Below, one piece after another: positions 3,137 through 61,112 of a DNA stretch of 64,000 nt. The translations under genes and the position numbers were made by a program. Origin of the DNA: Candidatus Harrisonbacteria bacterium (GTDB taxonomy: Bacteria > Patescibacteriota > Minisyncoccia > UBA6257 > 1-14-0-10-44-23); NCBI GenBank assembly GCA_023255625.1, contig JAHFLF010000001.1:290965-354964 (forward strand). Direction: 5' to 3'. Numbering within the stretch: position 1 is the stretch's first letter; each line of letters begins with the position of its first letter. The notes beneath the pieces are model-generated. The model was not told where the DNA came from, did not search any database, and was given only the letters and a program-made list of their open reading frames with translations.

Positions 3137-3598
3137 ATGAACCTAACGAATGAATACATTAGAGGACTTATAGACGGTGAGGGCTGCTTTTCTTTTTGTA
3201 CAAGCAGTTTCGTAGTAAGAAATGAGACTCTCTACCGCGGAAAGGTACCTGCATTCCAAATTTCAATGCATGTTAGAGACAAGGATCTTATTGAAGGAGT
3301 GCGGGATCATCTTGGCCTGAAAAATAAAGTCTATGTTTATAAATCTTCACAAAAAGATGGAATAAAAAGAGGAGATAAGGCAACCCTAATAGTCAGGAAG
3401 GCTTGTGACCTGAGAATGATAATAGTTCCATTTTTCTATGGTAAATTGCGCGGTCACAAGGGAAAGCAATTCAAGGAGTGGCTAGAAAAAATTGGATCAG
3501 ATGAAAGAGTTGGTGAAAAATTCAAAATTATCCATAGACTCTATAAATGCGGATATTGGGAGAAAATCCAGAATATACCGGAAAAATTCAGGAGTTAA
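3137..3598 (+). CDS. LAGLIDADG-family homing endonuclease (single-motif type)
   Basis: N-terminal YIRGLIDGEGCF is a textbook LAGLIDADG motif. 153 aa, basic C-terminus. Confidence 0.7.
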   Translation: MNLTNEYIRGLIDGEGCFSFCTSSFVVRNETLYRGKVPAFQISMHVRDKDLIEGVRDHLGLKNKVYVYKSSQKDGIKRGDKATLIVRKACDLRMIIVPFFYGKLRGHKGKQFKEWLEKIGSDERVGEKFKIIHRLYKCGYWEKIQNIPEKFRS

Positions 3599-6844: not shown

Positions 6845-7668
6845 CGAAGAAAAATGTGGGCATCATGATCGACTACGACGGGGTCGTCGTGTTGCAAACA
6901 ACGCAGCGGCCCACCTGTGACCCCAAGGCGATGTTCGAGCGACTCGCCCGAGCAGGGGTGATCATCATCCCGAACTCTGACACGCCAGTGGATCGTCTCA
7001 TGAGAAACTTCGAGGAAGCTACCGGCATCAAGCCAGCGCACCTCGTCGCAGAGCGCGGAGCAGTAGTCGTGAGCGAAAAAAAGCGCCACTACTACAAGCC
7101 CCAAGGCGACTTGTTCAAGCAGTACCGCAGTGCAATACAAGAAGCGCTGACCAGGGCCGGCATCGAAGTACTCATCAATGATGCGGCGAACTGGGTGCGC
7201 GATGTCCGTACGCATACACCCAACAGTCGCATGGCAATTCTCGACGGCATGCGCGAACTAAGCTTTTGCGCCTTCTTCCGGAGGACTGACGAATCCGGAG
7301 GGCCGTACATCGACCACGAATTCATGCAGGACTGCCTGCACGTCATCGACACCGTGGAGCCGCCAGTCGAGATCGAGAGGCAGACGGACAAATGTTTCGG
7401 GATCATGATCGGTAGCATTCCCGGAGTGAGCAAGACTACCGGTTTCCGGATTCTGCGTGATCTCTTCCGTGAGCCAATGCAGTGGTACATGATTGGAGAC
7501 GGCGAGGGCGACCTGATCGACGCAGATGAAGTAACGCATTGCGCGGTCGGCAATGCACAAGACGCACTGATCCACCGATGCGCGTTCCGAGCAAAACATT
7601 CGTACACCGACGGATTGCTCGAATGCCTCGACTGGATCAGCGCAAAGGAGAATCTATCAGAGCACTAG
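6832..7668 (+). CDS. HAD-superfamily hydrolase (Cof-like)
   Basis: IMIDYDGVVV (HAD motif I DxDG) and MIGDGEGD near the C-terminus. Likely GTG start at 6832 after AAGGGAG. Overlaps the end of the upstream gene. Confidence 0.55.
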   Translation: MSQLTKKNVGIMIDYDGVVVLQTTQRPTCDPKAMFERLARAGVIIIPNSDTPVDRLMRNFEEATGIKPAHLVAERGAVVVSEKKRHYYKPQGDLFKQYRSAIQEALTRAGIEVLINDAANWVRDVRTHTPNSRMAILDGMRELSFCAFFRRTDESGGPYIDHEFMQDCLHVIDTVEPPVEIERQTDKCFGIMIGSIPGVSKTTGFRILRDLFREPMQWYMIGDGEGDLIDADEVTHCAVGNAQDALIHRCAFRAKHSYTDGLLECLDWISAKENLSEH

Positions 7669-11544: not shown

Positions 11545-11577
11545 CTGGGCGAGATCCCTCGGCTTCGGGATGACAGA
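11545..11577. repeat. GGGCGAGAT-hairpin repeat, copy 1 (ACTGGGCGAGATCCCTCGGCTTCGGGATGACAG)
   Basis: Hairpin ATCCC / GGGAT around TCGGCTTCG. Other copies are at 25349-25385 and 50903-50940. Confidence 0.7.
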
Positions 11578-17960: not shown

Positions 17961-18689
17961 ATGGACATTGAAACTGGTTTAAAAAATCTCGGCCTAAAAA
18001 AGTCAGAAATTGCGGTGTATCTATACCTTTTGCGCGCCGGCGCCTCTACGCCGCCGATGATTGCAAAGGGGACGGGAATAGCGCGCACCAACTGTTATCG
18101 CGTACTTACGGCGCTACACGAGAAGGAACTCATCCAAACACAGCCGCTACGCAAACGCCGGGCCTATTTTGTGCGCGACCCGGAGTCATTAGTTTCCGGA
18201 CTGGAGCGAAAAACAGAGTTTGCCCGTCAGATTGTGCCGGAGCTGCGGGATTTTTATACAACGCAAAAAAATAAACCGAAAATCCGCTTTTTTAGCGGCT
18301 GGGAGGAGGTCAAAGAGGTGTTTCGCCTAACACTTGAGGCCAAAAAATTGTTTGCGCTTGGATCAACTGAGACGCTAGCAAAGATTGACCGTAAATTTAT
18401 GGAGTGGCACTGGAACGAGATGCAAAAACGAAAAATTATCTTTGACGACATCCTAACGGCCGATGCAAAAGGGAAAACTGCAGAAGAAATCAAGAGCATC
18501 CGTGGCGCGCTCCAGACCGTCAGATTTCTGCCAGAACAATTCGGCGACCAACCCATGGACATCTTTATCTGGGACGACAATATCGCCTTTATGGCGCTTA
18601 GCGAGCCAATCTTCGCCACGCTCATCACCGACGCGCCGCTCGTCAAAGCAATCAAAATCATGCACCGGGCGCTGTGGGAAAAACTTTAG
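17961..18689 (+). CDS. TrmB-family transcriptional regulator (paralog 1 of 5)
   Basis: N-terminal wHTH (EIAVYLYLLRAGASTPPMIAKGTGIARTNCYRVLTAL) and TrmB-like C-domain. Paralogs at 23945, 33303, 49865 and 61190. Confidence 0.6.
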   Translation: MDIETGLKNLGLKKSEIAVYLYLLRAGASTPPMIAKGTGIARTNCYRVLTALHEKELIQTQPLRKRRAYFVRDPESLVSGLERKTEFARQIVPELRDFYTTQKNKPKIRFFSGWEEVKEVFRLTLEAKKLFALGSTETLAKIDRKFMEWHWNEMQKRKIIFDDILTADAKGKTAEEIKSIRGALQTVRFLPEQFGDQPMDIFIWDDNIAFMALSEPIFATLITDAPLVKAIKIMHRALWEKL

Positions 18690-20271: not shown

Positions 20272-20335
20272 TCCTCGTAGTTCAACTCCGACGCTCACAG
20301 TAGTAAGGTCGGAGCCCCGACCTACTGCGTCGGGG
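20272..20335. repeat. about 64-bp direct repeat, copy 1 (nested hairpin GACGC-tca-CAGTAG-AGGTCGG-agcc-CCGACCT-CTACTG-CGTC)
   Basis: Repeated at 20695-20758 with two mismatches. The two copies flank the GIY-YIG gene and tRNA-Arg. Confidence 0.8.
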
Positions 20336-20346
20336 TGAATAGAATT

Positions 20347-20674: not shown

Positions 20675-20694
20675 ACAAAATGATAAGATTGGGT

Positions 20695-20758
20695 AGTTCA
20701 ACTCCGACGCTCACAGTAGTGAGGTCGGAGCCCCGACCTACTGCGTCTGGGTGGATAA
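20695..20758. repeat. about 64-bp direct repeat, copy 2
   Basis: See 20272-20335. Confidence 0.8.
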
Positions 20759-20808
20759 GACAAGGGGTTTCTAACCCCTCAATCTAGGTTCGATTCCTAG
20801 CGGGGACA
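20757..20808 (+). other. tRNA-like 3' fragment (anticodon-arm-like AGGGG-TTTCTAA-CCCCT, T-arm CTAGG-TTCGATT-CCTAG, CGGGGAC-A-CCA) with no adjacent 5' half
   Basis: Canonical T-loop and encoded CCA. The only candidate 5' acceptor strand (GTCCTCG) lies at 20274-20280, immediately before repeat copy 1. Confidence 0.4.
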
Positions 20809-20868
20809 CCATGGATAGTTAATCGGTTAGTCAGTTAGTTGGTTAGTTGGTAAAACGAAAAACTAATT

Positions 20869-21354
20869 ATGCAAAAAGGTGTTGATTTCATCGGCGTATC
20901 GGTTTCGTACTTTTGCCACGACGGCAAGGGGAATTATTTATTCCAAAAACGGGGATCCGGGGCTCGCGATGAGAACGGCAAGTGGGACTGTGGTGGCGGG
21001 GGATTGGAGTTCGGCCAAACAGTCGAGGAGTGCCTGAAGGCGGAAGTCAAAGAGGAATACTGCGCTGATATTTTGGATTCGGAATTCATTGGATACTACG
21101 AGGCATTTCGTACTATCAAAACACAAAATCCCTCACCGCAAGGCGGTCCCCTCCCTTTAGAAAAGGGAGAAGGAAAGCCAACGCACTGGATTGCTCTCCA
21201 CTTTAAAGTCTTGGTTGATCCAAAACAGGTCAAGAATGGAGAGCCGCACAAGTTTGACGAGATTAAATGGTTCCGACTTGATAATTTACCGCCAGCATCA
21301 GAACTTCACTCACAGCTGCCGGCGGAGATTGAGAGGTATAGGGGGAAATTGTGA
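20869..21354 (+). CDS. NUDIX hydrolase carrying an in-frame REP-like repeat insertion
   Basis: Nudix box GGGGLEFGQTVEECLKAEVKEEYC. Residues NPSPQGGPLPLEKGEGK are encoded by a copy of the repeat family at 21126-21172. Confidence 0.65.
   Translation: MQKGVDFIGVSVSYFCHDGKGNYLFQKRGSGARDENGKWDCGGGGLEFGQTVEECLKAEVKEEYCADILDSEFIGYYEAFRTIKTQNPSPQGGPLPLEKGEGKPTHWIALHFKVLVDPKQVKNGEPHKFDEIKWFRLDNLPPASELHSQLPAEIERYRGKL
21126..21172. repeat. REP/MITE-like element inserted in frame in the NUDIX gene
   Basis: AAATCCCTCACCGCAAGGCGGTCCCCTCCCTTTAGAAAAGGGAGAAGG. Confidence 0.7.
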
Positions 21355-22195: not shown

Positions 22196-22410
22196 AGCCG
22201 CGTTGCCAGGTAGTTTCGCTCGTATGGCTATCTTTTGAGGAAAGGACAATATGCTTAAGCATAGGCCTTTACTCGAAAGTAGTTCAGACGACGAAACTAA
22301 CGGCAACCACTTCGGGATCTGACATATTTTTGCCATTTCATTGTCGAATCGTCCTCGAAGTAGCTGAAGCTACTCCTTGCGGCGATTCTTCGCGACCTGA
22401 CAAAAATATG
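22196..22410 (+). ncRNA. candidate structured noncoding element, copy A (the second copy is at 50629-50835)
   Basis: Conserved blocks GAGGAAARGACAATATGC...GCATAGGC and CATTGTCG..TCGTCCTCGAAGTA-hairpin-TACTCCTTGCGGCGA. The internal hairpin is GTAGC/GCTAC here and GTACG/CGTAC in copy B. Confidence 0.4.
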
Positions 22411-22473
22411 TCTTGATCGCGGCCGGAAAAGGTTACTCAACAGACTCTGGCTGGGGTAGATCTAGACCCCATC

Positions 22474-23944: not shown

Positions 23945-24730
23945 ATGATAATGAGTGAGTGGCAAATACCACCACTCAATAGATATATGTACCAAGAAAT
24001 TCTTGAAGAATTAGGTCTATCGCAAAATGAAGCGAAGATCTACGAAGGCCTGATTGAAATCGGCCAGGCTTCGGTACCGGAAATATCCCTGAAAATAGGA
24101 GTTCATAAGCGTAATGTGTACGACATTATCCCCAAACTTTTAAAACGCGGCCTGATATATCAGATTGCGGATAGCAAGGAAAATACCTATGCTCCGGTCG
24201 CGCCGAATAAACTCTCTGACCTAGTTTGGGAAAAAGAAACAAAACTCAATAGCATTCTTCCAGGGCTCAATAGACAATTTAAAAAAGCCGCAACAGAAGA
24301 AGCGGTGTACATCTATAAAGGTGTTGAGGGATTTAAAAATTATCTTCGCGACATCTTAGCCACAGGGGAAGACGTCTTTTTTATAGGAGCTAAAGGAGGA
24401 TGGTTTGACGCTGACTTGCAAATTTTCATTAAAAAATTCTTAAAGCAAGCTCGCGAAAAAAAAATTAAATATCACCATATTTTTGATGCTGAAGTGAAAA
24501 CGCTGGCTCCCGACCTATTAAAAGCATTGGGGCAGCCATATCGTTTTTTACCGCCGGAATATTCCACAACCGGCGCTATCGATATCTTCGGAGACCATAT
24601 TGTAACCTTCTCTGGGCTAACGTTAAAAAATATTACGGAAGATGCAACTCTGGTCGTGATACAGAATAAAGAATTGGCGGATTGCTACCGAACCTGGTTC
24701 CGGTTTATTTGGGACCATTGCAGAAAATAA
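23945..24730 (+). CDS. TrmB-family transcriptional regulator (paralog 2)
   Basis: wHTH (EAKIYEGLIEIGQASVPEISLKIGVHKRNVYDIIPKL) and TrmB C-domain. Confidence 0.6.
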   Translation: MIMSEWQIPPLNRYMYQEILEELGLSQNEAKIYEGLIEIGQASVPEISLKIGVHKRNVYDIIPKLLKRGLIYQIADSKENTYAPVAPNKLSDLVWEKETKLNSILPGLNRQFKKAATEEAVYIYKGVEGFKNYLRDILATGEDVFFIGAKGGWFDADLQIFIKKFLKQAREKKIKYHHIFDAEVKTLAPDLLKALGQPYRFLPPEYSTTGAIDIFGDHIVTFSGLTLKNITEDATLVVIQNKELADCYRTWFRFIWDHCRK

Positions 24731-24767
24731 AACAATAAATGATGTGACTGGGCGAGAAGCGAAGATT

Positions 24768-26210
24768 CTACCCAATCATTCTATTCTTGAGATGCAGGGT
24801 GCGCGTGATAGCGATTTTGTCTAGAAAATATCTATCATGCGAGACAACCAGGAGTGCGCCACCATATTCGCGGAGCGCCTCTTCGATCACTTCACGCGCT
24901 TGTAGATCAAGATGATTGGTTGGCTCGTCCAGCACGAGCAGTTCATTTTCTTGATGAGTAATCTTGGCAAAAATCAGCCTGACCCGCTCGCCGAAGCTCA
25001 AGATTGCGACCTTCTTAAACACTTCCTGCCCGCTCAAGAGGAAGGCGCCAAGAATAGCGCGTGGACTTTTTGACGCACAGTTCAGTCGGTCGGTGCTTAA
25101 AAATTCCTCTAAAACCGTCTTATTAGGGTCAAGGATTTCCTGCTGCTGTGAAAAATAGCCGATTCGTACCTTTTCGCCAACAGTAACCTCGCCTTTGTCC
25201 GGGGCAAGCTCGCCGGTAATAATTTTGAGCAGCGTTGTCTTGCCTGAACCGTTTTCTCCGGCGAGCAAAACTCGTTCTTTGCCACGCAGCTCAAAGGTAA
25301 TATCCCAGAGCACAGAAACTGGCTTCCGGGTGAGTACCCCGGAATGACAAGCGGGGCGAGATCCCTCGGCTTCGGGATGACGGGGAGGGGATACGGGGGT
25401 GTTGCCGAAAGACTTTTTGATTCCCGAAAGCCGCAATATAAGTTTTGATTCAGCGGTCTGCCCATGCAATTCTAACGCTCTCATCTTCTTTTGACTGCCT
25501 GGCCTCACAAGTTCTTGATCATAAATTTCGCGCTGAAGGCGCTTTTCCATCGCTTGAATCATCTTTCCTTTGGCAGGGTCGCCGTGGAGAGTTGCCTCCT
25601 GGCGTTTGAGCGTAAGCCACAGCTCCATACGCCGCTTCTCGCGCTGCTGCCGCTCGTAGGCCTCCTGCTGCTGGGCTAGCGCTAGCCCTTTCTGGGCAAC
25701 ATACTCCGTGTAGCCACCTTGATACGCCACAAAAGCGTGATTAACAGGATCAATTTCCAGAATAGTGTCCACGACTGTATCCAGCAGTCTGCGGTCATGC
25801 GAGACGAGCAGCACACCGCCTTTGAATTTTGTTAAGAAGTCTTCAAGCCACTCTACCCCCTGCGCATCAAGATGATTGGTCGGCTCGTCAAGCAAGAGAA
25901 GCGTTGGTTTAGTGAGGAACAATTGCGAAAGCGCCAATCGTGTTTTTTGACCGCCGCTTAACTGACTGACGAGCGCATCGCCGGGCTGGAAGGGAAGTCC
26001 CTGTGGCAGATACCCAATTCGCTCCTGCTGGATGTCTACCGCGCCGCCGTCAGGTTCAATTTCGCCCAGAAGTATTTTAAGCAGAGTAGATTTTCCGGAG
26101 CCGTTCGGACCAATCAACCCAATTTTGTCGCCCTTATGGATAACAAACGACACCTGTTCAAAGAGCGGTTCGCCGAGAATATGCTTTGTAAGATTTTTGA
26201 TAGTAATCAT
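24768..26210 (-). CDS. ABC-F family ATPase (two ABC cassettes) carrying an in-frame repeat insertion
   Basis: Two Walker A motifs (GPNGSGKST, GENGSGKTT) and two signatures (LSGGQKTRLAL, LSFGERVRLIF). An extra segment NTPVSPPRHPEAEGSRPACHSGV is encoded by the GGGCGAGAT-hairpin repeat. Confidence 0.8.
   Translation of the reverse strand: MITIKNLTKHILGEPLFEQVSFVIHKGDKIGLIGPNGSGKSTLLKILLGEIEPDGGAVDIQQERIGYLPQGLPFQPGDALVSQLSGGQKTRLALSQLFLTKPTLLLLDEPTNHLDAQGVEWLEDFLTKFKGGVLLVSHDRRLLDTVVDTILEIDPVNHAFVAYQGGYTEYVAQKGLALAQQQEAYERQQREKRRMELWLTLKRQEATLHGDPAKGKMIQAMEKRLQREIYDQELVRPGSQKKMRALELHGQTAESKLILRLSGIKKSFGNTPVSPPRHPEAEGSRPACHSGVLTRKPVSVLWDITFELRGKERVLLAGENGSGKTTLLKIITGELAPDKGEVTVGEKVRIGYFSQQQEILDPNKTVLEEFLSTDRLNCASKSPRAILGAFLLSGQEVFKKVAILSFGERVRLIFAKITHQENELLVLDEPTNHLDLQAREVIEEALREYGGALLVVSHDRYFLDKIAITRTLHLKNRMIG
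25349..25385. repeat. GGGCGAGAT-hairpin repeat, copy 2, inserted in frame in the ABC-F gene
   Basis: GCGGGGCGAGATCCCTCGGCTTCGGGATGACGGGG. Flanked by G-rich sequence that is absent from normal ABC-F genes. Confidence 0.7.
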
Positions 26211-26932: not shown

Positions 26933-27275
26933 GACAATAAATGATTGGAATAAGTGAGAAGCGCAGATTTTGATGCAGTTCTAGGCGCGGGAGGGCGGTT
27001 TGTGAGCCGTACTTTTATATAAGTACGGTGAGCAAACCGACGGGACCCGCAACAACGAACTGCTCAAAATATGCATTTCTCACACACAATAACTCTGTAG
27101 TTGCCCCAAATTACGATTCCGGTTCTTGCGATTCCTCCGAAGGAGGATCCGCCTATGGCGGAAAAGTGTCGTGACTTAGAGCTCCACGACCAACACTCTT
27201 TTTCTATCAATCCAGTATATAAATATACTGAAGTGTCGCTTTTTCCTAATCTCCATTTACAGAGAAAGAAAAAAG

Positions 27276-29180
<1,905 letters not shown>

Positions 29181-29630
29181 TAATAAGTAATTTGAAATTC
29201 ATCTAGCCGAAGCCAGATGAATAACAAACACTCTTGTTTTGGGACAACTACACAATTATTGTTGCATACTTTATATCTGCTTGAAGGATATAAAGATTTT
29301 GATTTCCTAATCATTCATTTATCTTTATAGTTTTTAGTATCTTTCGATACAAACATTTTCAAAGAACGAAAGGTATACTCAATTCACTTTTTGAAGTGAA
29401 AATAATACACCCGTCTCGGCGACCTATCGTATGATCTGCAATACGACGACGAGACGGATGCGCTGGTCTGATATATGTTTTTCCGCCAGAGGCGGATCCG
29501 CCTTCGGCGGACAATTTGTACGAATTTCGCGGGATGTTTCGCTGGTTCGTTTGTACTGCCTTAAGCCAGTACTAATGTGGCTTCTAGTATAGTCGACCGA
29601 ATAATAAAGTCAAGACCTTATTAACGAAGC

Positions 29631-31021: not shown

Positions 31022-33331
31022 GTGTCATTTGAAAGACCATCGGAAAAGCCGCAGAGCGCCGAAAGAAGCGAAGGTGCAATTGAAAGGACGCGGCTTTTAG
31101 CGCAGCTGCAAGAGTTAAAAGCTCAACTACTAGCAAACGGAGGTCCTGCCCTAGTGGCCAAAGCCGCCGCTTTCATGGCTGGAGAAGTGACTGCGGCAAA
31201 ATTCTGCCGACGAAGCGAATTACTGCCTCAAGAAGAAGAGCTCCGTAGCACAGCAATTAATGCGCTCGTGCGAGAAGACATTATTAGCGGAGATCAAAAC
31301 CCTGATACCGGCGAGTTCGTGTTCGTCATTGACCCAACAAAAATCAATGGTATCAGCCGCGATAAGTTGCTGAAATACGTTGGTGGGATCGGATATGATG
31401 GCTCCGGCAATCAACTGAAAAAATCCGAAATAATTGCACGCATATTCCGCGACATCCAATCAATCACTCCGGGGCAGCAGGAAGAAGGAGACCTCAATCC
31501 CAAACCATTCCTATATATTCCAAAAAACGCAAAGGACGCGCTTGACCCGGCCAAAATCAAAAAAGCAGAATTTCAAACGACGCTCTGGGACATTGCCGGA
31601 AATAAAGAAGATGGTAATGAGGAATACCCTGTTGCCGATGGTCCGGGGGCCAATGCGCTTGAGACTCGTCTCGCGACGATTATCTTCCATCCGTCATACG
31701 GTGATGGATATCGCGATAAAAGCGGCGTTCTTCTGGTTCGTGATCCGGCCACGCGTGAGTACAAAAAATTCTCTACCGGCACCTTGAGTGACTACAATAT
31801 CAGCGGAACTCGACTTAGTGTTCGCGGCGGCAAGGTTGTACGCAGCAGTCGCCAAGGCCTTGCAGAGATGGCTCCCAGTCTCATCCGGAACGGCGCTCTG
31901 CGTAAAGAAGATTTAATGGCTATTAGAGGTACAAAAACCGGCGTCTATGACAGACGCCCCTCAAAACGAGGTATTAAAAAGTTAGTCATGTTTAACGGGG
32001 TGCGACACTATGTCGGCCCGCATGCCGAGGGTGCGGCGGCCGTACTATTAAGCCCGACAACCGCCGGCATTATAGAAAAAGATGCCTCCGGCAAAGAAAT
32101 GCTGACGCGAGTCTTCAATGCCTTTGATTCAAGCCAATTTGAATTGAAACAAAAGGAAAAGTTCCATGATTCAGGAGTTGATGAAACAAAACCCCGCCCG
32201 TTTGACCTTGCAGAATTTAGCGGCCCTAAAAAAGATGGCGAGTCAGAAGAGCTGTATGCAAATCGCCGCGCAGTCGTAGACTATGTTGAATTCATGAAAA
32301 TAAAAGATGATCTTGCGAAAATAGGTATTCCGGTTGATTCCGGCAATATTGAAACCGAAACCAACCTTGCCCGCGCTGTGCGTATCCTGTCGCAGACAAA
32401 TCGCTATGAAATATTTCTTGCCTTTGCAAAGAAAACGGGCGAATCCGGTATAGCTGCCATCATAACCGCCGGAGATGACGCTCCGTATGTTGAAGCAATC
32501 CTGAAAATTGGCGAGAAATTATCGGCCGATAAGGCACGCGAATTTTTTGAAGAAACCGACCAAGAGAAAATCTTAGAATCTCTTCATGAAAACTCCGGCG
32601 ACAAAACAATCGTAGCACTTCGAGAAAACATTAGGCGTACAAACAGAGAGCTATTCATCCGTTGTGCGGCGAGCGAAACAGCGATCAAAAACCCGCGCGA
32701 AACTAAAAAGATACTCGACCGCGCGAAAGCGGAGATTCGGCTGTTTGAAAATATGCTCCGAATCATTGAAGAAACTGAACAGCTACCGTCAGAATATCTC
32801 CGCGGAACTGAAATGGCGATTACTGAAACCGGCGAACTCTCCGACCTGGATCTTGCGAACATGCTTAAGCAATTTGAGGAGACTCGGAAAAATGACCTGG
32901 ATGAAAAGGGGAAGCCGATTTACGATGCTGAACATCTTGAGGGCCTCGTACAAGATTTCAAACAAAAACTAGAAAATCCCAAAGCGCGATTTTATACTGT
33001 TCGCCAAGGTGGCGCCATCATTGCCTTTGTTCGCTTTGAAGACCTACCGAACGATCATGTCTACGCCGGATCATTCACGACAAGCAAAGATTTGCGCGGC
33101 GAAAAGCTCGGCTCCGCGCTCATGCGAACTGCGTTTGCACAAGAAAACGCCGACAGAACCCTAGAGGCAATTGTTTTTTCCGGAAATCCACGGCTGATGG
33201 AATACCATACTCAAAAGCTCGGCCACGAAATCCATTATGACCAGCCACTCAAAATCGGCGGTGCGTTGTATTACCGGATGACTCGCGAGCCGCGCAAGCA
33301 AGCTACGGTTTCGCTTGGGGCGGCCGCATAG
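31022..33331 (+). CDS. large hypothetical protein (769 aa) with a C-terminal GNAT-like acetyltransferase fold
   Basis: The C-terminal IIAFVRFEDL...RGEKLGSALMRTAF resembles GNAT motif A. About 650 N-terminal residues are unrecognised. Start uncertain (GTG at 31022). Confidence 0.5.
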   Translation: MSFERPSEKPQSAERSEGAIERTRLLAQLQELKAQLLANGGPALVAKAAAFMAGEVTAAKFCRRSELLPQEEELRSTAINALVREDIISGDQNPDTGEFVFVIDPTKINGISRDKLLKYVGGIGYDGSGNQLKKSEIIARIFRDIQSITPGQQEEGDLNPKPFLYIPKNAKDALDPAKIKKAEFQTTLWDIAGNKEDGNEEYPVADGPGANALETRLATIIFHPSYGDGYRDKSGVLLVRDPATREYKKFSTGTLSDYNISGTRLSVRGGKVVRSSRQGLAEMAPSLIRNGALRKEDLMAIRGTKTGVYDRRPSKRGIKKLVMFNGVRHYVGPHAEGAAAVLLSPTTAGIIEKDASGKEMLTRVFNAFDSSQFELKQKEKFHDSGVDETKPRPFDLAEFSGPKKDGESEELYANRRAVVDYVEFMKIKDDLAKIGIPVDSGNIETETNLARAVRILSQTNRYEIFLAFAKKTGESGIAAIITAGDDAPYVEAILKIGEKLSADKAREFFEETDQEKILESLHENSGDKTIVALRENIRRTNRELFIRCAASETAIKNPRETKKILDRAKAEIRLFENMLRIIEETEQLPSEYLRGTEMAITETGELSDLDLANMLKQFEETRKNDLDEKGKPIYDAEHLEGLVQDFKQKLENPKARFYTVRQGGAIIAFVRFEDLPNDHVYAGSFTTSKDLRGEKLGSALMRTAFAQENADRTLEAIVFSGNPRLMEYHTQKLGHEIHYDQPLKIGGALYYRMTREPRKQATVSLGAAA

Positions 33332-34100
33332 ACAAATCAGCAGCCACAAACGGTTGCGCCTTTTCCCATTGCGCCTCAAACAGTGTTCGGTGCATCTGGC
33401 TAATGTATGGATCATCAATAATCACGCCGATGCGGCCGCGCTCATTAAAGCTCAAAAAACTCACTTTATTTTCATAAATTTGTACGATACTGCTAAACGG
33501 AACTTGCGGCGGCGGAATGAGGCGGATAGAGACAATCTGTTTGCTTAATTTTTCTTGGAGCGAACGAATATATTTTGTGTCCGGGCCGATAATCCGTTTG
33601 TGGATGCCGCGTTTTACGCGCTCATTAATATACCGCGCATTTTCTGCCGGTAGATACTTGTCCATAACCTCGTGATCAAGATAGGTTAAGACCTCCCCAC
33701 CTGAAACAAGCGTATCATCAGCCAAAATCCTGATTGCGCTATCGCCCTCGTAATACTGCACACCCGGCTTACCGGAAATCAAATTAAAATCTGATGTTAA
33801 GTTGGCGATAATGCCGCCGAGCGCCTCTTGCGCGACTTTGGCCGATTGCTCTTTCTGCTCCGCAAGCTCTTTCAGCCGAAGCGGATGCGTCGGCTCAAAG
33901 CGCAATACTTTTGCCTTTGTATTTTTTGCGACTAACCCGAGCGCAACGAGCTCATCGAGCACCTTGTAAGTGAGCCCGCGCTTGAGTCCTGATTTTTCGC
34001 TGATTTCACCAGCGGCAAGCGCGCCGTGCTTAAGCAACACCTCGTAAATTTTGGCCTGATCAGCGCTCAATCCGGCTTTAGATAAAGTTTGTTCGTACAT
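33303..34100 (-). CDS. TrmB-family transcriptional regulator (paralog 3)
   Basis: wHTH (QAKIYEVLLKHGALAAGEISEKSGLKRGLTYKVLDEL) and TrmB C-domain. Confidence 0.6.
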   Translation of the reverse strand: MYEQTLSKAGLSADQAKIYEVLLKHGALAAGEISEKSGLKRGLTYKVLDELVALGLVAKNTKAKVLRFEPTHPLRLKELAEQKEQSAKVAQEALGGIIANLTSDFNLISGKPGVQYYEGDSAIRILADDTLVSGGEVLTYLDHEVMDKYLPAENARYINERVKRGIHKRIIGPDTKYIRSLQEKLSKQIVSIRLIPPPQVPFSSIVQIYENKVSFLSFNERGRIGVIIDDPYISQMHRTLFEAQWEKAQPFVAADLSMRPPQAKP

Positions 34101-37326: not shown

Positions 37327-37723
37327 TCGCCACCCCTCACCCGTTTTGAAGCAACGGGAACGATGAGGTAACGCTTCAAGAGAGGAGGTGAGTCGTAAGG
37401 GGTCTTTTCATCCTGGTTTTCGCCATCAAGCAAAACCAAGGAGTTTTCGGGAATCAGTCCCGACGAGTATCAGCTTCTGAGCGGCTGATACTTTAGAATG
37501 GTTAGCTCTTCGCGCTGGTGGGGGAGGTCAGACTCGTTCTGATCTCTCCCCACCGCAAATTTTATGAATTCGTATCAGGATTTTTCTGGATTCCCGCTTT
37601 CGCGGGAATGACAGACAGAAAATTGATATGAGTTCGTAAGGTACGGGCTCAAGAATCACTACCACGCGTTGCTGTCATGGGCAGCGCGTTGGTTTCGCCC
37701 TGACGGGCAATTGGAGGTTTACC

Positions 37724-42532: not shown

Positions 42533-45028
42533 CTACCCGCATCGACTAAATCCACAGGATCCACAGGACATACACCCCTCCTTCAGAGTCAAATTTCCGC
42601 CGCAGTCTGGACAGCCCGGCATCATACCGAAATTGGCAATCGTTTGTTTCTTCGCCGCTCCTTCGCCAGAACTGGCGACTCTCTGTCCTTCCCCGGCAGA
42701 AACTGGCGCACTGATTAATTCATTAATCGTTCCCTCCGAAACCGTCTTCTGTCCTCCGGTAACATGCTCTTCTAGAATCTGCGCAATCGCATCAGGGAGG
42801 GAAAGAATTGTTCCCCGATTTGTCATGACCGGCATCGGCCCGCGGATACCCTTCATCTGCTTAATTATCTCCTCGACTTTAATGTGGCTGCGTAGAGCAA
42901 TGGAAATAAGCCGGCAAAGCGCTTCGGATTGTTCCTGGAAAAATCCGCCGCTCTTGCCCAGAGTCGCGAAGACCTCAATCGGTGCACCATACTCGTCATC
43001 ATTCACCGTAACGAAGAGAATGCCGTAACCGGTCTTCACTTTATAAGTCTTGCCGGAGACAACATCTGGCCGCACTCGCGGGGTCAACTTGCCGGCGTCA
43101 ATCGCCAAGTTCAGCGGCTTTTCAATCTGCTGCACTACTTTTTCTTTTGTGCCAAAACCCTCGGTCGTTGATTTGATATTTTCACCGGCTCCGATATTCA
43201 ATACCTGCACCTCGCGACTACCGTCGCGATAAAAAGTCATCCCTTTGCAACCTTGTTTCCAAGCCAGCACATAACCGGCCGCCACCTCCTCACGCGTCGC
43301 GCTGTTTGGAAAGTTAATCGTCTTACTAATTGAATTATCAACATGCTTCTGAAATGACGCCTGCATCTGGATATGATCTTCGGCTGCAATATCCATGGAA
43401 ACCACAAATGTATCGCGCAAATCTTTAGGCAGGGTCGAGAGGTTCTGGATGCTGCCGGTCTTGAGGAGCTCGTCCATAATACCGCTCTTATTAATATCAA
43501 TCTTGCGATCTTTGAGCGCCTGTTCGAAAACCGGATTTAAATACTTATATTGCAAACCGTCTTTATCCTGCTTGGTAAAGTACAAGGCAAAGTTTGGTTC
43601 TATGCCGCTAGAGCAGTCGGTAAACATCGAGATCGAACCGGTCGGCGCAACGGTCGTGAGCGCGGCATTACGCATCTTAATCCGTTTTTTGCCAAACACA
43701 CTGTCTTTCCAAAGTCCGAATGCACCTTTTTCTTTGGCGAGCACCTGGCTCATTGCATGGGCCTCGTCGTTAATAAAGCCCATTACTTTTTCGCCCAGAT
43801 CGCGGCCCTGCTTAGAGTTATATTGCACGCCGAGCTTATAGAGCATGTCGGCAAAACCCATAATTCCCAACCCGATTCTACGCGTAGACTGGGCCCGATC
43901 AGTCACTTTCTGAACCGGATGCGCATACAAATCAATCACATTATCGTGCAAACGAACTGCAGTACGGGTTACCTTGCGTAGCCGTTGCCAATCAATCTTT
44001 TCTCCCTTCACAAAAGCAGAAAGATTTATTGAACCAAGATTACAGACATCATAGTGATGCAGGAACTGCTCACCGCACGGGTTAGTCGAATCAATCGCGC
44101 CGAGTTGAGGCAGAGGATTAGTCTTGTTGGCAGCATCCAGGTTCACTACACCGGGCTCGCCATTAAACCAGGCGCCCTCAACGAGTTCGTCAAAAAGTTG
44201 CTTGGCCGTCATGTCTAATTCCTCGAAACCATTTACCGAACCGTTGCCGGAGCGTAACACCCGGTGCGGCTTCATCCGCTTGCCATTCCAACGAGCGAGC
44301 CAGGGCTCATTTGGTTTTTCCGTAACGGCTTTCATAAACTCATCGGTGATGCCGACGGAAATATTAAAGTTGCGGATACTGCCTTCAACAGTTTTGCAGT
44401 GAATGAAATCCAGAATATCCGGATGATCCACCGGCATGATGGCCATGTTCGCACCGTGGCGTCCCTGCTGCTTAATAATTCCAAATGCAGTGTTGTAAAT
44501 TTTTAGAAATTCAACCGGGCCGGAGGACATGCCGTTGGTGCGCTTCGTCGGCGTACCGGCCGGACGCAGATGACCGAAAGAAAAGCCCAGCCCACTGCCG
44601 GCCTGCTGCAAAAGTGCGGCTTCTTTTAAAGTCTGAAAAATATCTTCGAGCGTATCTAAGACGGGGAGCACAATGCAGTTGGCAATAATCGGCGTACCGG
44701 CGCCGACATTGGTCAAAGTGCGGCCGGCCGGTGTGTGCTCCTTGTTGGCCATGATCTCAAAAAAATCTTGCTCGATTTTTTTGACCTGCGAATCGGTTTT
44801 TCCGTATTTTTCTTTTTCAATCTGCGCCAACCCGCCGGCAACACGGTGAAAAAGTTCCGCCGGAGTCTCCTGCGTGCCGTCTTCGCGTTTGGCGAGATAG
44901 CGTTTCTTCATCATTTTCAGAGCGTTCTCGGAAAATGACTGATTTATTTTTTTATCAAATTCTTTTTGTGAATTCACGGCTGATTTTTTTGCTACGAATA
45001 CTCTTTTCGCGACAGCTTTCTTCTTCAT
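42533..45028 (-). CDS. nrdJ: class II (adenosylcobalamin-dependent) ribonucleotide reductase NrdJ with C-terminal zinc ribbon
   Basis: Long RNR core with C-terminal CPDCGG...CMSCGSCGFSRCG. ATG at 45028. Confidence 0.8.
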   Translation of the reverse strand: MKKKAVAKRVFVAKKSAVNSQKEFDKKINQSFSENALKMMKKRYLAKREDGTQETPAELFHRVAGGLAQIEKEKYGKTDSQVKKIEQDFFEIMANKEHTPAGRTLTNVGAGTPIIANCIVLPVLDTLEDIFQTLKEAALLQQAGSGLGFSFGHLRPAGTPTKRTNGMSSGPVEFLKIYNTAFGIIKQQGRHGANMAIMPVDHPDILDFIHCKTVEGSIRNFNISVGITDEFMKAVTEKPNEPWLARWNGKRMKPHRVLRSGNGSVNGFEELDMTAKQLFDELVEGAWFNGEPGVVNLDAANKTNPLPQLGAIDSTNPCGEQFLHHYDVCNLGSINLSAFVKGEKIDWQRLRKVTRTAVRLHDNVIDLYAHPVQKVTDRAQSTRRIGLGIMGFADMLYKLGVQYNSKQGRDLGEKVMGFINDEAHAMSQVLAKEKGAFGLWKDSVFGKKRIKMRNAALTTVAPTGSISMFTDCSSGIEPNFALYFTKQDKDGLQYKYLNPVFEQALKDRKIDINKSGIMDELLKTGSIQNLSTLPKDLRDTFVVSMDIAAEDHIQMQASFQKHVDNSISKTINFPNSATREEVAAGYVLAWKQGCKGMTFYRDGSREVQVLNIGAGENIKSTTEGFGTKEKVVQQIEKPLNLAIDAGKLTPRVRPDVVSGKTYKVKTGYGILFVTVNDDEYGAPIEVFATLGKSGGFFQEQSEALCRLISIALRSHIKVEEIIKQMKGIRGPMPVMTNRGTILSLPDAIAQILEEHVTGGQKTVSEGTINELISAPVSAGEGQRVASSGEGAAKKQTIANFGMMPGCPDCGGNLTLKEGCMSCGSCGFSRCG

Positions 45029-45317
45029 AATGGGAAAGGGATAATTAAAATAATAAAATTTTCGATGAAGAAAAAATATGCACTGGAAATCATCAGGAAT
45101 TTTTTCGTTCCTCAATTCTACTCCCCGTTCTCAAGACCTGGCAAGAGTGGATAACTCAAAAATGTTCAAGCTAAAAAAGATTTTTAACAAGTGTCAACGA
45201 CGCCAACCTAAAAATCGCTTCACAAACCAAAAAATCAGCTCCGCGGGGCTGATTTTTTGGGCCTTTTTCTTAGTTTCGACCAATTAACCAACTAACCAAC
45301 TAACTGATGAACTAATT

Positions 45318-45675
45318 CTGGTGCCGCGGGTCAGAATCGAACTGACAACCACTTCCTCTTCCAAGGATATTCTCTGCATTACTGCAAAGTTTGGACTATA
45401 TCATCTCCCCAGAGGGGAGTCGGGCGCTATCTGCGAGGTTATTGTTGGGACTCACTCGCTAGTCTCTACACCTGCCTCCGCTAAAGCTACTGCAGGCAAG
45501 CCTTCTTCAACGATTTGGCTTGCTTGCAATCCGTAGCCTCCCGGCGAAGGATTGGCTCGGGATTTTCCTCTCACAAGGAGTTCCCCCGAATTCACCCAAT
45601 TATTCAATCCATATTACTATGGAAGGCCCCAAAGAGTTATCAATAGGGAAATGCTCTACCATTGAGCTACCGCGG
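45318..45675 (-). tRNA. tRNA-Phe (anticodon GAA) interrupted by a 283-nt group I intron between U33 and G34 (exons 45644-45675 and 45318-45360)
   Basis: Exon 1 GCCGCGGTAGCTCAATGGTAGAGCATTTCCCT. Exon 2 GAAGAGGAAGTGGTTGTCAGTTCGATTCTGACCCGCGGCACCA. Intron carries group I R-like (TAGAGACTAG) and S-like (GATATAGTCC) elements, a GGGG internal guide, and ends in G. Confidence 0.7.
45361..45643 (-). mobile_element. group I intron within the tRNA-Phe anticodon loop, with no homing-endonuclease ORF
   Basis: See the tRNA-Phe entry. The 5' exon ends in U and the 3' exon follows a G. Confidence 0.6.
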
Positions 45676-46377
45676 CAGCGGCGCGAACTGCTTCAAACCC
45701 TCAATCCACCCCATAATTTTATAGAACAGTTGAGTATTGTTGATTCTAATTTGAATGACCCCAAAAGGCAAGCGATTAAAGGGTCTTTTACCTTTGCTAG
45801 ATAAACTTACGAAAATATGCACTTTGCCAAAACGACTCTTGGGAATCTTAGTAATCTTTGACCAATAACTAATTGCTTCATCTTCTTGAATATGTTTAAA
45901 GATTCTTAAATCTGCAGTGATCTTTTCTTCTGGTACATTGCAAATCTCGCGGATAAATCTTAGAAACATCTGCACCAACAACGGATCAGAATTTGTAAGA
46001 CTTATTGAGTGTGCTGTTATTTCACGACCCTTAACTTTTCTCACTCTTTTATAACCTTCCGCCCAGTAAAGCGCGATTCCGACAATAAACAAATTTTCTC
46101 TTGATACCTCACGAATCTCAGATTGAGCCAATTCCAAAATATCATCTCTCCGCTTAATGGCTAGGGCTGTCTGCTCCTTATTTCTTTTTATAAAACCAGC
46201 AAGGGATTTTTCGCGGCTCCGGACTGCAATTTTTTTCCGGGCCTCATCAGAAAGGGGAACTTCTTTCAACCATAAAGAAAGGGTTGATTTAGAAATCCCT
46301 AGCAACAGTTTTTGAATCTGACCATAACTCAGACCTTCTAACCTCAACTGAATCGCACGATTTTTATCTTTCCTCAT
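45667..46377 (-). CDS. hypothetical HTH-domain protein (236 aa) immediately upstream of, and slightly overlapping, tRNA-Phe
   Basis: N-terminal GLSYGQIQKLLGISKSTLSLWLKE HTH. Basic. Function unknown. Confidence 0.45.
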   Translation of the reverse strand: MRKDKNRAIQLRLEGLSYGQIQKLLLGISKSTLSLWLKEVPLSDEARKKIAVRSREKSLAGFIKRNKEQTALAIKRRDDILELAQSEIREVSRENLFIVGIALYWAEGYKRVRKVKGREITAHSISLTNSDPLLVQMFLRFIREICNVPEEKITADLRIFKHIQEDEAISYWSKITKIPKSRFGKVHIFVSLSSKGKRPFNRLPFGVIQIRINNTQLFYKIMGWIEGLKQFAPLPR

Positions 46378-48301: not shown

Positions 48302-49669
48302 CTACCGTTCAAAAGACGCGTGCCGATTGATGAACTGTGCAATCTTACGGCCGAGCCACCATCTCGGCACGGGCACGAGCGGACTCGTACGGCAGAGTCG
48401 GAACGGGGTCAGGAGCAAGACAATAAGAAGATAGGCGATGTTCGCGCGCCACCGTTGCGGCCAGAGCGGGTGCGTCTCTTTGCAGGCGAGCATTGTATAG
48501 TCGAGCCGTATGAGCAACTTGGGATTCTTGCGAAACTCCTCAACCTGGGGATTGTCGTCTGGCCACTCACCGCTCGGCGTGTATGCCCTGGCGCAATAGG
48601 GACGTATGACCACGCCTCGCAGAGCGTGGCGAAACACGAAACGAAGCGTCAGGAAAACATCGCGAAACATATCGGCTGGGAAACCGACAACGGTGAGCAT
48701 CTCCGGCTCAATACCCGCCTCCTGCATCAGTCGCAGAAACTCCTCCGCTTCAGACAGCGTGTTGTGCCCCTTGTTCACACGACGGAACGCCGCCTCACTC
48801 CCACCGTCAGCCCCGAACCCGACAGTCTCAAGTCCGTACGACCGAAGTCGCGTTGCTAGCTCGAGATCTTTCCTGCACTCACGAACCGTCCACTTGGAGG
48901 TGGCAAGACCGCGCAGGTGCAAGACGATGCCGTGTCGCCTCGCGATTCGACTCACAGCAGCAAGACACAGTTCAAGCTTGTCAACGCTCTGAAAGACATC
49001 AAGGTTGGTCAGGTAGGCCGTGAAGGTAGAGTGACCAATAGAGACGAGGGACGAACAGATGTACTCCACCTCCTCCTCGAGCGCACGCAAGCTTCGGTAC
49101 TGCTCCGGCCGATTCTTCGCGGCCGCACAAAAGCTGCAATTGAACATGCAGCCGTTCGCTAGAAAGAGCGCGAACTCGCTAGTGAGATATAGGCGGCGCT
49201 GCGCCTCCGTCAGTTGCATGAGCATCCGCACCGACGAGGTGTCGAAGGCGGAACGCAGACTGCCCGGTGCAAGATCGAGGGCCTGCTCGCATGCCTGATC
49301 CGTCGTCACGGGAACAACCTGACCAAGCCGACTGAACCAGTTCGTGAAATCAGCGGGGCAATGCAGGTTGTTGATGCCCTCGCCTCCCACAAGCACAAGC
49401 TGCTGATACCCCATGAAGCGCACTCTCGCAATGTCGCGCATAACATCAGGGATGTAAGGCGTGCCAATCACGCTCCAACCAACGAAGTTAGAGCGGTCAA
49501 GCTCTGATCGAACTTCTGGCGACTCAAGGTCGGTGTGGTTCAGGTCAAAAAACGAAACCTCAATACCGGCCTCAAGCAACCGACTCCCGAGATTCATAAG
49601 ACCTCCCGGGAGATACGTCTTAACCCGACCGTGCGGGTAGCGCGGCTCAAATAGGGTAATACGACGCAT
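48302..49669 (-). CDS. radical SAM domain protein
   Basis: CMFNCSFCAAAKN (CxxxCxxC). N-terminal region could be a B12-binding-like domain. GC-rich. Confidence 0.6.
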   Translation of the reverse strand: MRRITLFEPRYPHGRVKTYLPGGLMNLGSRLLEAGIEVSFFDLNHTDLESPEVRSELDRSNFVGWSVIGTPYIPDVMRDIARVRFMGYQQLVLVGGEGINNLHCPADFTNWFSRLGQVVPVTTDQACEQALDLAPGSLRSAFDTSSVRMLMQLTEAQRRLYLTSEFALFLANGCMFNCSFCAAAKNRPEQYRSLRALEEEVEYICSSLVSIGHSTFTAYLTNLDVFQSVDKLELCLAAVSRIARRHGIVLHLRGLATSKWTVRECRKDLELATRLRSYGLETVGFGADGGSEAAFRRVNKGHNTLSEAEEFLRLMQEAGIEPEMLTVVGFPADMFRDVFLTLRFVFRHALRGVVIRPYCARAYTPSGEWPDDNPQVEEFRKNPKLLIRLDYTMLACKETHPLWPQRWRANIAYLLIVLLLTPFRLCRTSPLVPVPRWWLGRKIAQFINRHASFER

Positions 49670-49864: not shown

Positions 49865-50617
49865 ATGAAAAAAATAACTAAAACCATAGCCGGATTATCG
49901 GCTCGCCAGACAGAGGTTTATTGTGTTTTATTAAAACTAGGAAAGGGGACTGTTGCCGAGGTCATGCGCGAGGCAAAGATGAACCGCACAACCGGTTACA
50001 GTGTTTTAGATTCACTGGTTGGCAAAGGGCTCGTGACGATTTCAGGGAAGGAGCCAAAGCAGGAATATGTCGCTGAATCACCAGACAATTTACTCAAGTA
50101 TCTGAATCATGAGGCAGAGGAGGCGCAGGCGCGAGCCAAAGAAGTTGAAAATCTAATTCCAGAATTAAAATCTATCCACAATGTTGCCGGCCGGCCAAAG
50201 GTGATGTTTTATGAGGGCGAGGAGGGGCTGGAGCGCGTTTATGAAGACACGCTGACCTCGCATGAGCCAATTCGGGCGTATGCCAATTTTGAGGATGCAA
50301 CAAAAACACTGCCTCACTACTTTCCGGAGTATTTCCGACGCCGTGCAGAGAAAAGAATTTCAATCCGCGGCATCGTGCCCGACAACCTTGCGGGCCGCCA
50401 AAATGCAGAGCGCAACCGGGAAGAATTGCGCGAAATGGCACTTGTGCCGACAAATAAATATTATTTCTCTCCAGAAATCAACATCTACGACGACAAAATC
50501 ATGATCGCTTCATGGAAGGAAAAACTTGGTATCATTATCCAAAGCAAAGAAATCGCTGATGCGATGAAATCTATCTTTGAGCTCGCCTGGGCAGAAGCTA
50601 AGCGTCTATCTCGCTAA
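49865..50617 (+). CDS. TrmB-family transcriptional regulator (paralog 4)
   Basis: wHTH (QTEVYCVLLKLGKGTVAEVMREAKMNRTTGYSVLDSL) and TrmB C-domain. Confidence 0.6.
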   Translation: MKKITKTIAGLSARQTEVYCVLLKLGKGTVAEVMREAKMNRTTGYSVLDSLVGKGLVTISGKEPKQEYVAESPDNLLKYLNHEAEEAQARAKEVENLIPELKSIHNVAGRPKVMFYEGEEGLERVYEDTLTSHEPIRAYANFEDATKTLPHYFPEYFRRRAEKRISIRGIVPDNLAGRQNAERNREELREMALVPTNKYYFSPEINIYDDKIMIASWKEKLGIIIQSKEIADAMKSIFELAWAEAKRLSR

Positions 50618-50628
50618 AACTTTGCCCC

Positions 50629-50835
50629 GCGTTGCGAAGCCCGTTTTGCCGTATGCTAGGCGCGAGGAAAAGACAATATGCCCAAAGCATAGGCTTTTCT
50701 GAACAACAACGCAGACGGGCAAACGGGCTTCAACCCGAAGGGCTCTGGCCAATTTCCGTCATACCATTGTCGGCTCGTCCTCGAAGTACGTAAACGTACT
50801 CCTTGCGGCGAGCCTTCGCGGTCTGACAGAAATTG
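50629..50835 (+). ncRNA. candidate structured noncoding element, copy B
   Basis: See 22196-22410. The hairpin GAAGTACG-TAAA-CGTACTCC covaries with copy A. Confidence 0.4.
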
Positions 50836-50902
50836 ACCTAGAGCTCGGGAAAAAGATTTTAGCGAGATAGACGCTGAACGGATTGATGTAAGAAATAAAA
50901 GA

Positions 50903-50940
50903 GTTGGGCGAGATGCTTCGGCTTCAGCATGACAGAGGGG
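50903..50940. repeat. GGGCGAGAT-hairpin repeat, copy 3, with compensatory stem (ATGCT/AGCAT in place of ATCCC/GGGAT)
   Basis: GTTGGGCGAGATGCTTCGGCTTCAGCATGACAGAGGGG. Confidence 0.7.
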
Positions 50941-51049
50941 TCCCGATCTGCTACAATATCTACATAAAATGTATCGCATACGGCGATGCTTTTTTATTAG
51001 CTTTCTCGCCTCTCACTACTCCCTACAACCTACGCCCTAATCCTTATCT

Positions 51050-60421: not shown

Positions 60422-60503
60422 CCATCCCGCGCCCGATTCTTCCATCAGTATACTAAACTGACGGCCGTCAGTTTAGTATACTGAACGCAAAACGCAAGAA
60501 AAA

Positions 60504-61112
60504 TTATGCGAGGTGTTCGAGTGTTCCGGTTCCGCCAACCTCAACAATCTCAACAAAATCTGCCAGCTTGCGCATAGCCAAATCTTCAATGAGTTTCCGG
60601 GGAATGGCAACCTTGCCAACCCACACGCTCTGCTGTAACTGCTCAAGACCAATCCGTTTTAAAACTGCCCGCAACCATGCTCTATCATTTCTGCTTTTTT
60701 CGGGAATATCATACACGACGATAACGACTTTCTTGCCGGGCGACAACTCGTAGCCAAAACCAGGCAGATTATGCTTCCGCTCGTACTTAAGACGGCGCAG
60801 TTTTTCACGACCTACCTTTGTTAAACGTAATCTTACTTTACCCTTGATAGTTTCTTTAGAAAGCATTCCTTGTTTAGATAGGTAGCGGACCATCATAGAA
60901 TACCGATGATACTGCTGTCGAGGCGCCGCTTCAAAATGTACCGTATTGCGACCAAATGCCCGCTCAATCTCTCCGGCAGACGCTCCATAACCGGCCTCCA
61001 AAATCGCGCCCACCATCGCCGGTACTGTCATTGCCGCATCTTCAAGGGTATTTAAAATACGAAAAATAACATCGCCGCTACCGCGCCTTTTGTTGTTAGT
61101 TCTTTTGTTCAT
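60504..61112 (-). CDS. PaaX-like winged-helix regulator
   Basis: N-terminal wHTH. The C-terminal VVIVVYDIPEKSRNDRAWLRAVLKRIGLEQLQQSVWV resembles the PaaX middle domain. Confidence 0.4.
   Translation of the reverse strand: MNKRTNNKRRGSGDVIFRILNTLEDAAMTVPAMVGAILEAGYGASAGEIERAFGRNTVHFEAAPRQQYHRYSMMVRYLSKQGMLSKETIKGKVRLRLTKVGREKLRRLKYERKHNLPGFGYELSPGKKVVIVVYDIPEKSRNDRAWLRAVLKRIGLEQLQQSVWVGKVAIPRKLIEDLAMRKLADFVEIVEVGGTGTLEHLA

Follow-up and report, generated by a model that had tools for sequence, protein, structure and literature searches.

A Short Palindromic Repeat Family with an In-Frame Copy in an ABC-F ATPase Gene of a Candidatus Harrisonbacteria Genome

Genes and Repeats at the Locus

The DNA analyzed here is a stretch of 64,000 nucleotides of contig JAHFLF010000001.1 from Candidatus Harrisonbacteria bacterium, referred to below as the window. 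The window contains the gene for an ABC-F ATPase, and one copy of a family of short hairpin repeats lies in frame within this gene. Two further copies are intergenic. All positions refer to the 64-kb window unless a locus (L with a number) is named. The coordinates of the gene, the repeat copies, and the related hairpins are collected in Table 1.

Table 1. Coordinates of the ABC-F gene, its insertion, and the hairpin elements discussed in the text
Feature	Position	Strand	Description
ABC-F ATPase gene	24768-26210	-	480 aa; Walker A, signature, Walker B, and H-loop motifs intact in both cassettes
In-frame insertion in ABC-F	~25317-25397	-	81 nt = 27 codons; peptide PVSPPRHPEAEGSRPACHSGVLTRKPV; boundaries uncertain by a few nt
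Tryptic peptide of the ABC-F insert			HPEAEGSRPACHSGVLTR
Second hairpin in the insert	25324-25351	+	TTCCGGG-tgagtac-CCCGGAA then TGACAAG; perfect 7-bp stem; unrelated to the repeat
Repeat copy 1	11547-11574	+	intergenic; lies 10 nt beyond the stop codon of ftsH (Pfam match) and upstream of tRNA-Ile; ftsH and tRNA-Ile are on the - strand; 57 bits
Repeat copy 2	25354-25381	+	GGGCGAG-ATCCC-TCGGCTTC-GGGAT-GAC; within ABC-F, antisense to the gene, in frame; translated as RHPEAEGSRP; 55.7 bits
Repeat copy 3	50906-50933	+	compensated stem ATGCT/AGCAT; intergenic, with a TrmB-family gene and a VTT-domain gene as its neighbors
Sister-genome intergenic copy	L010 8865-8902 = L001 3802-3839		fused to the fold-back hairpin ATGACGC-tagtt-GCGTCAT from its own 3' flank
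Hairpin of the wider set	37590-37615	+	ATTCCCGC-tttc-GCGGGAAT then GACAGA; A-T foot; intergenic
REP-like doublet copy	21127-21174	+	CTCCCTTTnnnnAAGGGAG plus CACCGCnnnnGCGGT; 48 nt, in frame in the NUDIX open reading frame 20869-21354

Sequence and Structure of the Repeat

The pattern GGGCGAGAT-NNN-TCGGCTTC-NNN-ATGAC was matched three times in the window, each time on the plus strand, where dinucleotide shuffles give an expectation of 0. An earlier sequence-only reading of the window had placed copies at 11545-11577, 25349-25385, and 50903-50940, and all three were recovered by exact-pattern matches starting at 11547, 25354, and 50906. The repeat unit is 28 nt long and contains an 18-nt stem-loop. 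It consists of a 5-bp stem with an A-T/T-A foot, an invariant 8-nt loop (TCGGCTTC), and the invariant flanks GGGCGAG on the 5' side and GAC on the 3' side. Five of the six reading frames of the 28-nt core are open.

The stem reads ATCCC/GGGAT in two of the window copies and ATGCT/AGCAT in the third, a difference that had been proposed to be compensatory. When two copies from a second genome (described below) were added to the three from the window, the proposal held: all 25 of the 25 stem cells in the five-copy alignment pair. Both partners have changed in two of the five stem pairs (from C-G to G-C, and twice from C-G to U-A), and control registers that were slid by 1-3 columns gave pairing in only 24-44% of the cells. 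Across the 28-nt core, the four full copies differ solely by compensatory substitutions within the stem.

A covariance model was built from the same five copies and searched without filters. Exactly five clean copies were detected in ~135 kb with scores of 48-57 bits, three in the window and two in the overlapping loci L001 and L010 of the sister genome. These are followed by one degenerate copy at 23 bits and then by matches of 16 bits or less; the next-best match within the window scores 11 bits. A partial copy that the sequence-only reading had placed at 24746-24768 was dismissed, as it scores 7.4 bits with an E-value of ~8 and has only a 10-11-mer in common with the repeat, which is at chance level. 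No match to Rfam 15 was obtained for the region 25250-25470 at E-values up to 10.

The copies share one strand, the C-rich one, in both genomes. Four of the five have the same orientation relative to transcription, and copy 3 is opposite relative to its adjoining genes. A minus-strand open reading frame (ORF) at 50656-50979 extends over copy 3, but it is not a called gene in the public assemblies and copy 3 was therefore treated as intergenic. At this position no gene is called across the element in L018, and one assembly calls a 57-aa plus-strand ORF that starts within the element. The copy 3 region is identical in an independent assembly.

The Insertion in the ABC-F Gene

Alignment of the ABC-F protein with 25 orthologs revealed 27 extra residues between the KSFG and SVLWD segments of the second cassette, which are missing from all 25. 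The nearest ortholog (69% identity by BLASTP) is encoded on the syntenic contig L009, where the empty site reads TTC GGT GTT CGT / TCG GTG CTC TGG. These comparisons support the assignment of the ABC-F segment, from its sequence, as a lineage-specific in-frame insertion, as had been proposed from the letters of the window. The inserted DNA has a G+C content of 0.65, versus 0.50 for the remainder of the gene. Of the 81 inserted nucleotides, only 28 belong to the repeat, and the rest is made up of the second hairpin and a G-rich tail.

The structure predicted by AlphaFold has a mean predicted local distance difference test (pLDDT) score of 83. Residues 271-295 have a pLDDT below 50 and no secondary structure, and they are flanked by the strands 257-268 and 298-309. 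On this model the insert is located at the β1-β2 turn of the second ATPase (nucleotide-binding) domain, about 20 residues before Walker A. In ABC domains, this turn comes after the aromatic A-loop residue and is solvent exposed. The sequence-only reading had described about 20 extra residues between the first β-strand and Walker A; the size is corrected here to 27 residues and the location to the β1-β2 turn. We infer that the insert would be kept in the mRNA and in the protein and translated as a disordered 27-residue loop.

The identical ABC-F protein is found on three contigs. Agreement with the window is exact, with 0 mismatches, over 13,662 nt of the ENA assembly L008 and over 3,816 nt of a Logan assembly. 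An error of assembly, which had been named as a possible refutation, is excluded by these exact matches. As a separate feature of the same protein, the first cassette lacks, at residues ~75-80, some 30-50 residues that are present between the Q-loop and the signature motif in many orthologs; this deletion is common to several others.

Copies in a Sister Genome

When one genome per species was scanned, the motif was found in one other genome only, a metagenome-assembled genome (MAG) labelled Saccharibacteria (loci L001 and L010). Six matches were obtained in metagenome contigs, all of them in high-GC coding sequence without complementary stems and thus due to chance, and viral contigs gave 0. 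The sister MAG is a fairly close relative of the window organism: their elongation factor EF-P proteins are 90% identical, but the third-codon positions at conserved residues are only ~50% identical. The relatives of the ABC-F and MnmA proteins carry the names Kuenenbacteria, Paceibacterota, and Parcubacteria.

The sister MAG holds two copies of the repeat, one intergenic and one within mnmA. The whole ~50-nt segment of the intergenic copy in L010 is missing from the sister genome L014, in which no repeat copy was found in 21 kb. The mnmA copy is antisense to the gene and has a third compensated stem (ATCCT/AGGAT). It is read in the same frame as the ABC-F copy and again yields RHPEAEGSRP. The same copy is present in an independent assembly. 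Since the solved MnmA structures are too distant for the loop in question, close orthologs and the L014 DNA were used instead. Among 24 aligned sequences, the loop that holds the peptide varies from ~6 to ~18 residues. Between L010 and the syntenic L014 (88% protein identity and 77% DNA identity in mnmA), 39 nt in the former replace 21 nt in the latter. The mnmA gene of the window genome itself (locus L016) is without the element, and no full copy was found in that locus.

The cores are 26-28/28 identical between the window genome and the sister genome. Comparison of the loci indicates that copies were gained independently and recently in both lineages, since the nearest relatives are without copies. 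The near identity of the cores, where neutral sequence would be about half diverged, speaks for a constraint on the family sequence or for recent transfer. A profile of RHPEAEGSRP was compared with 5.8 billion proteins; 11 word-sharing candidates were returned, none with E <=10, and the padded alignment provided no usable census.

A Wider Set of Hairpins

Hairpins that have an A-T foot and are followed by GAC occur 9 times in the window, versus 2.6 ± 1.5 in shuffled sequence, and none of 200 shuffles reached 9. For the generic class, in which a hairpin precedes TGAC or GACA, the window shows no enrichment compared with shuffled sequence. In L016, which belongs to the window's own genome, three A-T-foot hairpin units lie at 7227-7344 in the spacer beside mnmA. 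Unit 1 is a degenerate 28-nt core with an A-T foot that ends in GATCGA. Unit 2, with the stem ATTCT/AGAAT and a GACAGA tail, is arranged head to head with the degenerate core, and the pair resembles the doublets known as REPINs (repetitive extragenic palindromic (REP) doublets forming hairpins). Unit 3 is a perfect 9-bp palindrome, ATCCTCGGG-tcaag-CCCGAGGAT, again with a GACAGA tail.

From these arrangements the 28-nt core would appear to be a one-arm deletion derivative of the 9-bp palindrome. The 28-nt repeat is one recently amplified lineage within this wider set, whose hairpins have the A-T foot and the GACAGA tail in common. The window hairpin of the set that is listed in Table 1 lies in the segment 36001-40000, which has a G+C content of 0.59 versus ~0.47 around it and in which three ORFs were scanned without a Pfam match.

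The REP-like Doublet in the NUDIX Gene

A second, REP-like family is also present in the window. The sequence CTCCCTTTnnnnAAGGGAG occurs in 7 copies versus 0 expected, usually with a second hairpin as its partner. The sequence-only reading had stated that this family likewise interrupts the NUDIX gene in frame, and this was borne out: relative to 10 distant homologs, the doublet adds 16-17 residues, and the sequence comparison supports a real in-frame insertion. The NUDIX doublet is common to the syntenic relative L009, which places the NUDIX insertion before the ABC-F event.

Comparison with Known Systems

In-frame copies that are translated are known for Rickettsia palindromic elements (RPEs; Ogata et al. 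[quoted passage not shown] In that portion, RPEs are palindromic repeats that are found both in intergenic regions and in frame within unrelated housekeeping genes, where an additional peptide is translated from them at sites that the protein fold can accommodate, in hosts with a small reduced genome. The present family is alike in these respects, with an in-frame insertion at a tolerant site of a conserved gene and translation predicted from the intact frame. It differs in that RPEs are ~100-150 bp long, versus the 28-nt unit here, and belong to another phylum, with no relation in sequence. One genic copy per genome has so far been seen here, versus dozens for RPEs (PMC10969869).

REP and REPIN elements are mobilized by REP-associated tyrosine transposases (RAYT, or TnpAREP) (PMC8266576, PMC3116915). 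The repeat described here shares with them a short hairpin of similar size, a conserved flank at the foot of the stem, and compensatory variation of the stem (PMC8266576, PMC3116915). The family sequence is kept across diverged relatives, as it is in REPs (PMC8266576). REPs lie mostly between genes, often close behind a stop codon, and form clusters and head-to-head doublets; here one cluster with one such doublet is seen in L016. The conserved 28-nt unit, with an 18-nt stem-loop inside it, fits the 20-50 nt of a REP palindrome. The copy number is 3 per 64 kb, 2 of them intergenic, and is thus low in the sequence available. The stem has only 5 bp with a conserved 8-nt loop, unlike that of REPs, and no copy carries the GTAG motif; instead, GGGCGAG flanks the stem at its 5' end and GAC(A/G) at its 3' end, and on the other strand the stem is preceded by (T)CTGTC. 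No RAYT gene was found among 40 ORFs of the window or in the gene tables of L008, L010, L014, and L016, a search that covered ~80 kb of a contig of at least 600 kb. REPs are also extragenic by definition.

MITEs such as ERIC, QMITE1, and the Anabaena MITEs (PMC10969869) are comparable as non-autonomous repeats with occasional in-frame fusions to host genes. They are usually 50-500 bp in length with terminal inverted repeats and target-site duplications, neither of which can be defined here. No inverted repeat extends beyond the 5-bp stem, and the PVS codons at both ABC-F junctions are not identical in DNA, so that no duplication can be called. The subterminal hairpins of the insertion sequence (IS) families IS200/IS605 also combine a hairpin with an adjoining short conserved motif and act as single-stranded DNA, and the copies described here share one strand. 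The copies here are solitary, with neither an IS body nor a tnpA or tnpB gene. An intrinsic terminator is contradicted by folding z-scores of -0.2 to -1.2 and by the lack of a T-run after the hairpin at copies 1-3.

Origin of the In-Frame Copies

The element is probably a short non-autonomous palindromic repeat of the REP/MITE-like kind, of which, within genes, only in-frame copies in tolerant loops survive selection. Under this explanation copies would be gained at new sites over time. One such event would have placed the repeat unit, the second unrelated hairpin, and the G-rich tail (81 nt together) into the β1-β2 turn of ABC-F. Since 81 nt is divisible by three, the frame used contains no stop codon, and the turn is exposed, the ABC-F protein would stay functional. 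The in-frame status would then reflect selection acting on random insertions. The near-invariant loop and flanks suggest recognition by a conserved trans-acting enzyme. By analogy with the REP-associated or IS200/IS605-type tyrosine transposases, such an enzyme would probably bind single-stranded DNA hairpins.

The distribution of the copies is consistent with this explanation. Of the 11 hairpin-repeat copies in the window, 9 are intergenic, although ORFs cover ~80% of the sequence (P ~2e-5), and this depletion points to the removal of most genic insertions by selection. No two of the three genic events have the same form: 81 nt were added in ABC-F (53 of them unrelated to the repeat), 39 nt replaced 21 nt in mnmA, and 48 nt were added in NUDIX. 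All three are in surface loops, which in ABC-F and mnmA proved to be disordered or hypervariable.

Several observations weigh against this explanation. No transposase of any kind was found among the 40 window ORFs (by Pfam) or in the gene tables of the four loci named above, and the GTAG motif, terminal inverted repeats, and a definable target-site duplication are all lacking. The fold of the hairpin is weak, at -3 to -5 kcal/mol and within the range of z-scores given above versus shuffles; the case for the hairpin is thus made by the covariation and not by the folding energy. No other copy of the 53 inserted bases in the second hairpin and the G-rich tail was found in the sequences compared, and more than the plain insertion of a single unit must therefore have taken place in ABC-F. 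In mnmA, sequence was replaced and not cleanly inserted. The known copy number is low, at 3 per 64 kb, and expression of the insert is predicted from its frame.

The sequence-only reading had suggested that the insertion mechanism is itself responsible for keeping the host gene in frame. All three genic events (ABC-F, NUDIX, and mnmA of the sister genome) are in frame, as such a mechanism would require, and both genic copies of the 28-nt family are antisense and encode RHPEAEGSRP in the same frame. The strong depletion of copies from genes and the variable size and form of the events argue against it, and out-of-frame hits in essential genes cannot be observed. With five of the six core frames open, the survival of in-frame events explains the pattern and no frame-keeping mechanism is needed. 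A shared frame of two copies is expected by chance in ~1 of 5 cases (n = 2); the common orientation and frame of both genic copies are recorded as unexplained. A mechanism that keeps the frame was judged very unlikely. That the insert is an artefact of assembly or sequencing, or is removed before translation as an intron- or intein-like segment, is hardly credible. Nothing beyond the foreign G+C content of the insert speaks for this, and it is contradicted by the same protein on three contigs, the L008 match, the size of the insert (81 nt is far below that of a self-splicing intron or intein), and the lack of an Rfam match.

A role at the RNA level, as a stabilizer of 3' ends or a processing site like the REPs of E. 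coli, with the ABC-F copy incidental or regulatory, would account for the invariant loop and flanks and the covarying stem across two genomes with saturated silent sites. It would also fit the position of copy 1 after ftsH and the orientation shared by four of the five copies. Such a role is nonetheless improbable, given the weak fold, the lack of a U-run after the hairpin in the transcribed sense, the negative Rfam search, and the opposite orientation of copy 3. The copies are not at orthologous sites in relatives, and a spreading repeat fits this better than a fixed regulatory site. Spread without a transposase is a live rival, if not a likely one. In this case, repair-linked template switching or ectopic gene conversion would patch hairpin DNA into break sites. 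The mosaic ABC-F insert, in which one repeat unit is joined to 53 unique bases with a further perfect hairpin among them, is consistent with this, as are the fold-back of its own 3' flank that is carried by the intergenic copy of L010, the replacement in mnmA, and the lack of a transposase in the window. Template switching alone does not account for the invariance of the loop and flanks across ~50% silent-site divergence, and it leaves the A-T foot and GACAGA tail that are common to different hairpins unaccounted for. A more ambitious proposal is that the hairpins are substrates of a previously undescribed mobilizing system that recognizes hairpins and is specific to this clade of Patescibacteria, unrelated to RAYT and IS200/IS605. 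Such a system would have fixed the loop and flanks over long divergence, built the mosaic fold-back inserts, and repeatedly remodelled the surface loops of core proteins in one preferred orientation and frame (RHPEAEGSRP). We consider this proposal a long shot; if true, the system would be a source of protein-loop innovation in ultra-small genomes.

The preferred explanation, a REP/MITE-like repeat under selection, is of a known kind: palindromic repeats that occasionally survive in genes as extra surface loops. The new aspects are the host group, the very small unit, in which the loop does not vary, and the signs that two related genomes have each gained copies recently. Within the paper library that was searched, no description was found of REP-like elements or their in-frame insertion in the Candidate Phyla Radiation (CPR)/Patescibacteria or in Saccharibacteria. 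CPR/Patescibacteria genomes are tiny and are usually thought to be repeat-poor. As this locus demonstrates, genomes of this small size do have active short palindromic repeats, through which core proteins of translation and tRNA modification can acquire longer surface loops. Repeat inserts may be one source of the many lineage-specific insertions in CPR proteins. The conservation of the loop and flanks against saturated silent sites provides a handle for finding the hairpin-recognizing enzyme. In genome annotation, inserts of this type should not be mistaken for frameshifts or assembly errors.

Other Features of the Window

The 16S rRNA gene at 27274-29184 on the minus strand is 1,911 nt long versus 1,533 nt for the model, which corresponds to an insertion of ~380 nt. 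A group I intron (Rfam, 60.9 bits) lies at 45372-45644 on the minus strand, between an ORF at 45667-46377 without a Pfam match and the ribonucleotide reductase ORF at 42533-45115; the ribonucleotide reductase gene may be split by this intron. A resemblance to the D8 repeat in the radical-SAM gene (49098-49132) was rejected as an insertion, since it is native sequence directly after the CxxxCxxC motif.

Other repeats are also present. A repeat of ~110-150 nt occurs at 22314-22422 and 50740-50848 with 74% identity and contains a covarying hairpin (GTAGCTgaagCTAC versus GTACGTaaACGTAC). The latter copy is bracketed by a 19-nt inverted repeat (50601-50619 and 50857-50875). Around the ORF of a LAGLIDADG endonuclease (3137-3598), the segment 2554-4506 contains four 31-nt palindromes (CTATGTATTAGTGTACTAGTACACTGTAACA and variants). 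A 65-nt repeat with 95% identity (20277-20341 and 20693-20757) lies beside two tRNA-Arg(TCT) genes, the second of which (20745-20811) is atypical with a score of 32.8 bits. Two near-identical, perfect 34-nt palindromes (AGTATACTAAACTGACGGCCGTCAGTTTAGTATA) at 60447-60480 and 61124-61157 flank the ORF 60504-61112 and look like operator sites. The window also encodes at least five TrmB-family helix-turn-helix paralogs in 64 kb, at 17961-18689, 23945-24730, 33303-34100, 49865-50617, and 61190-61996.

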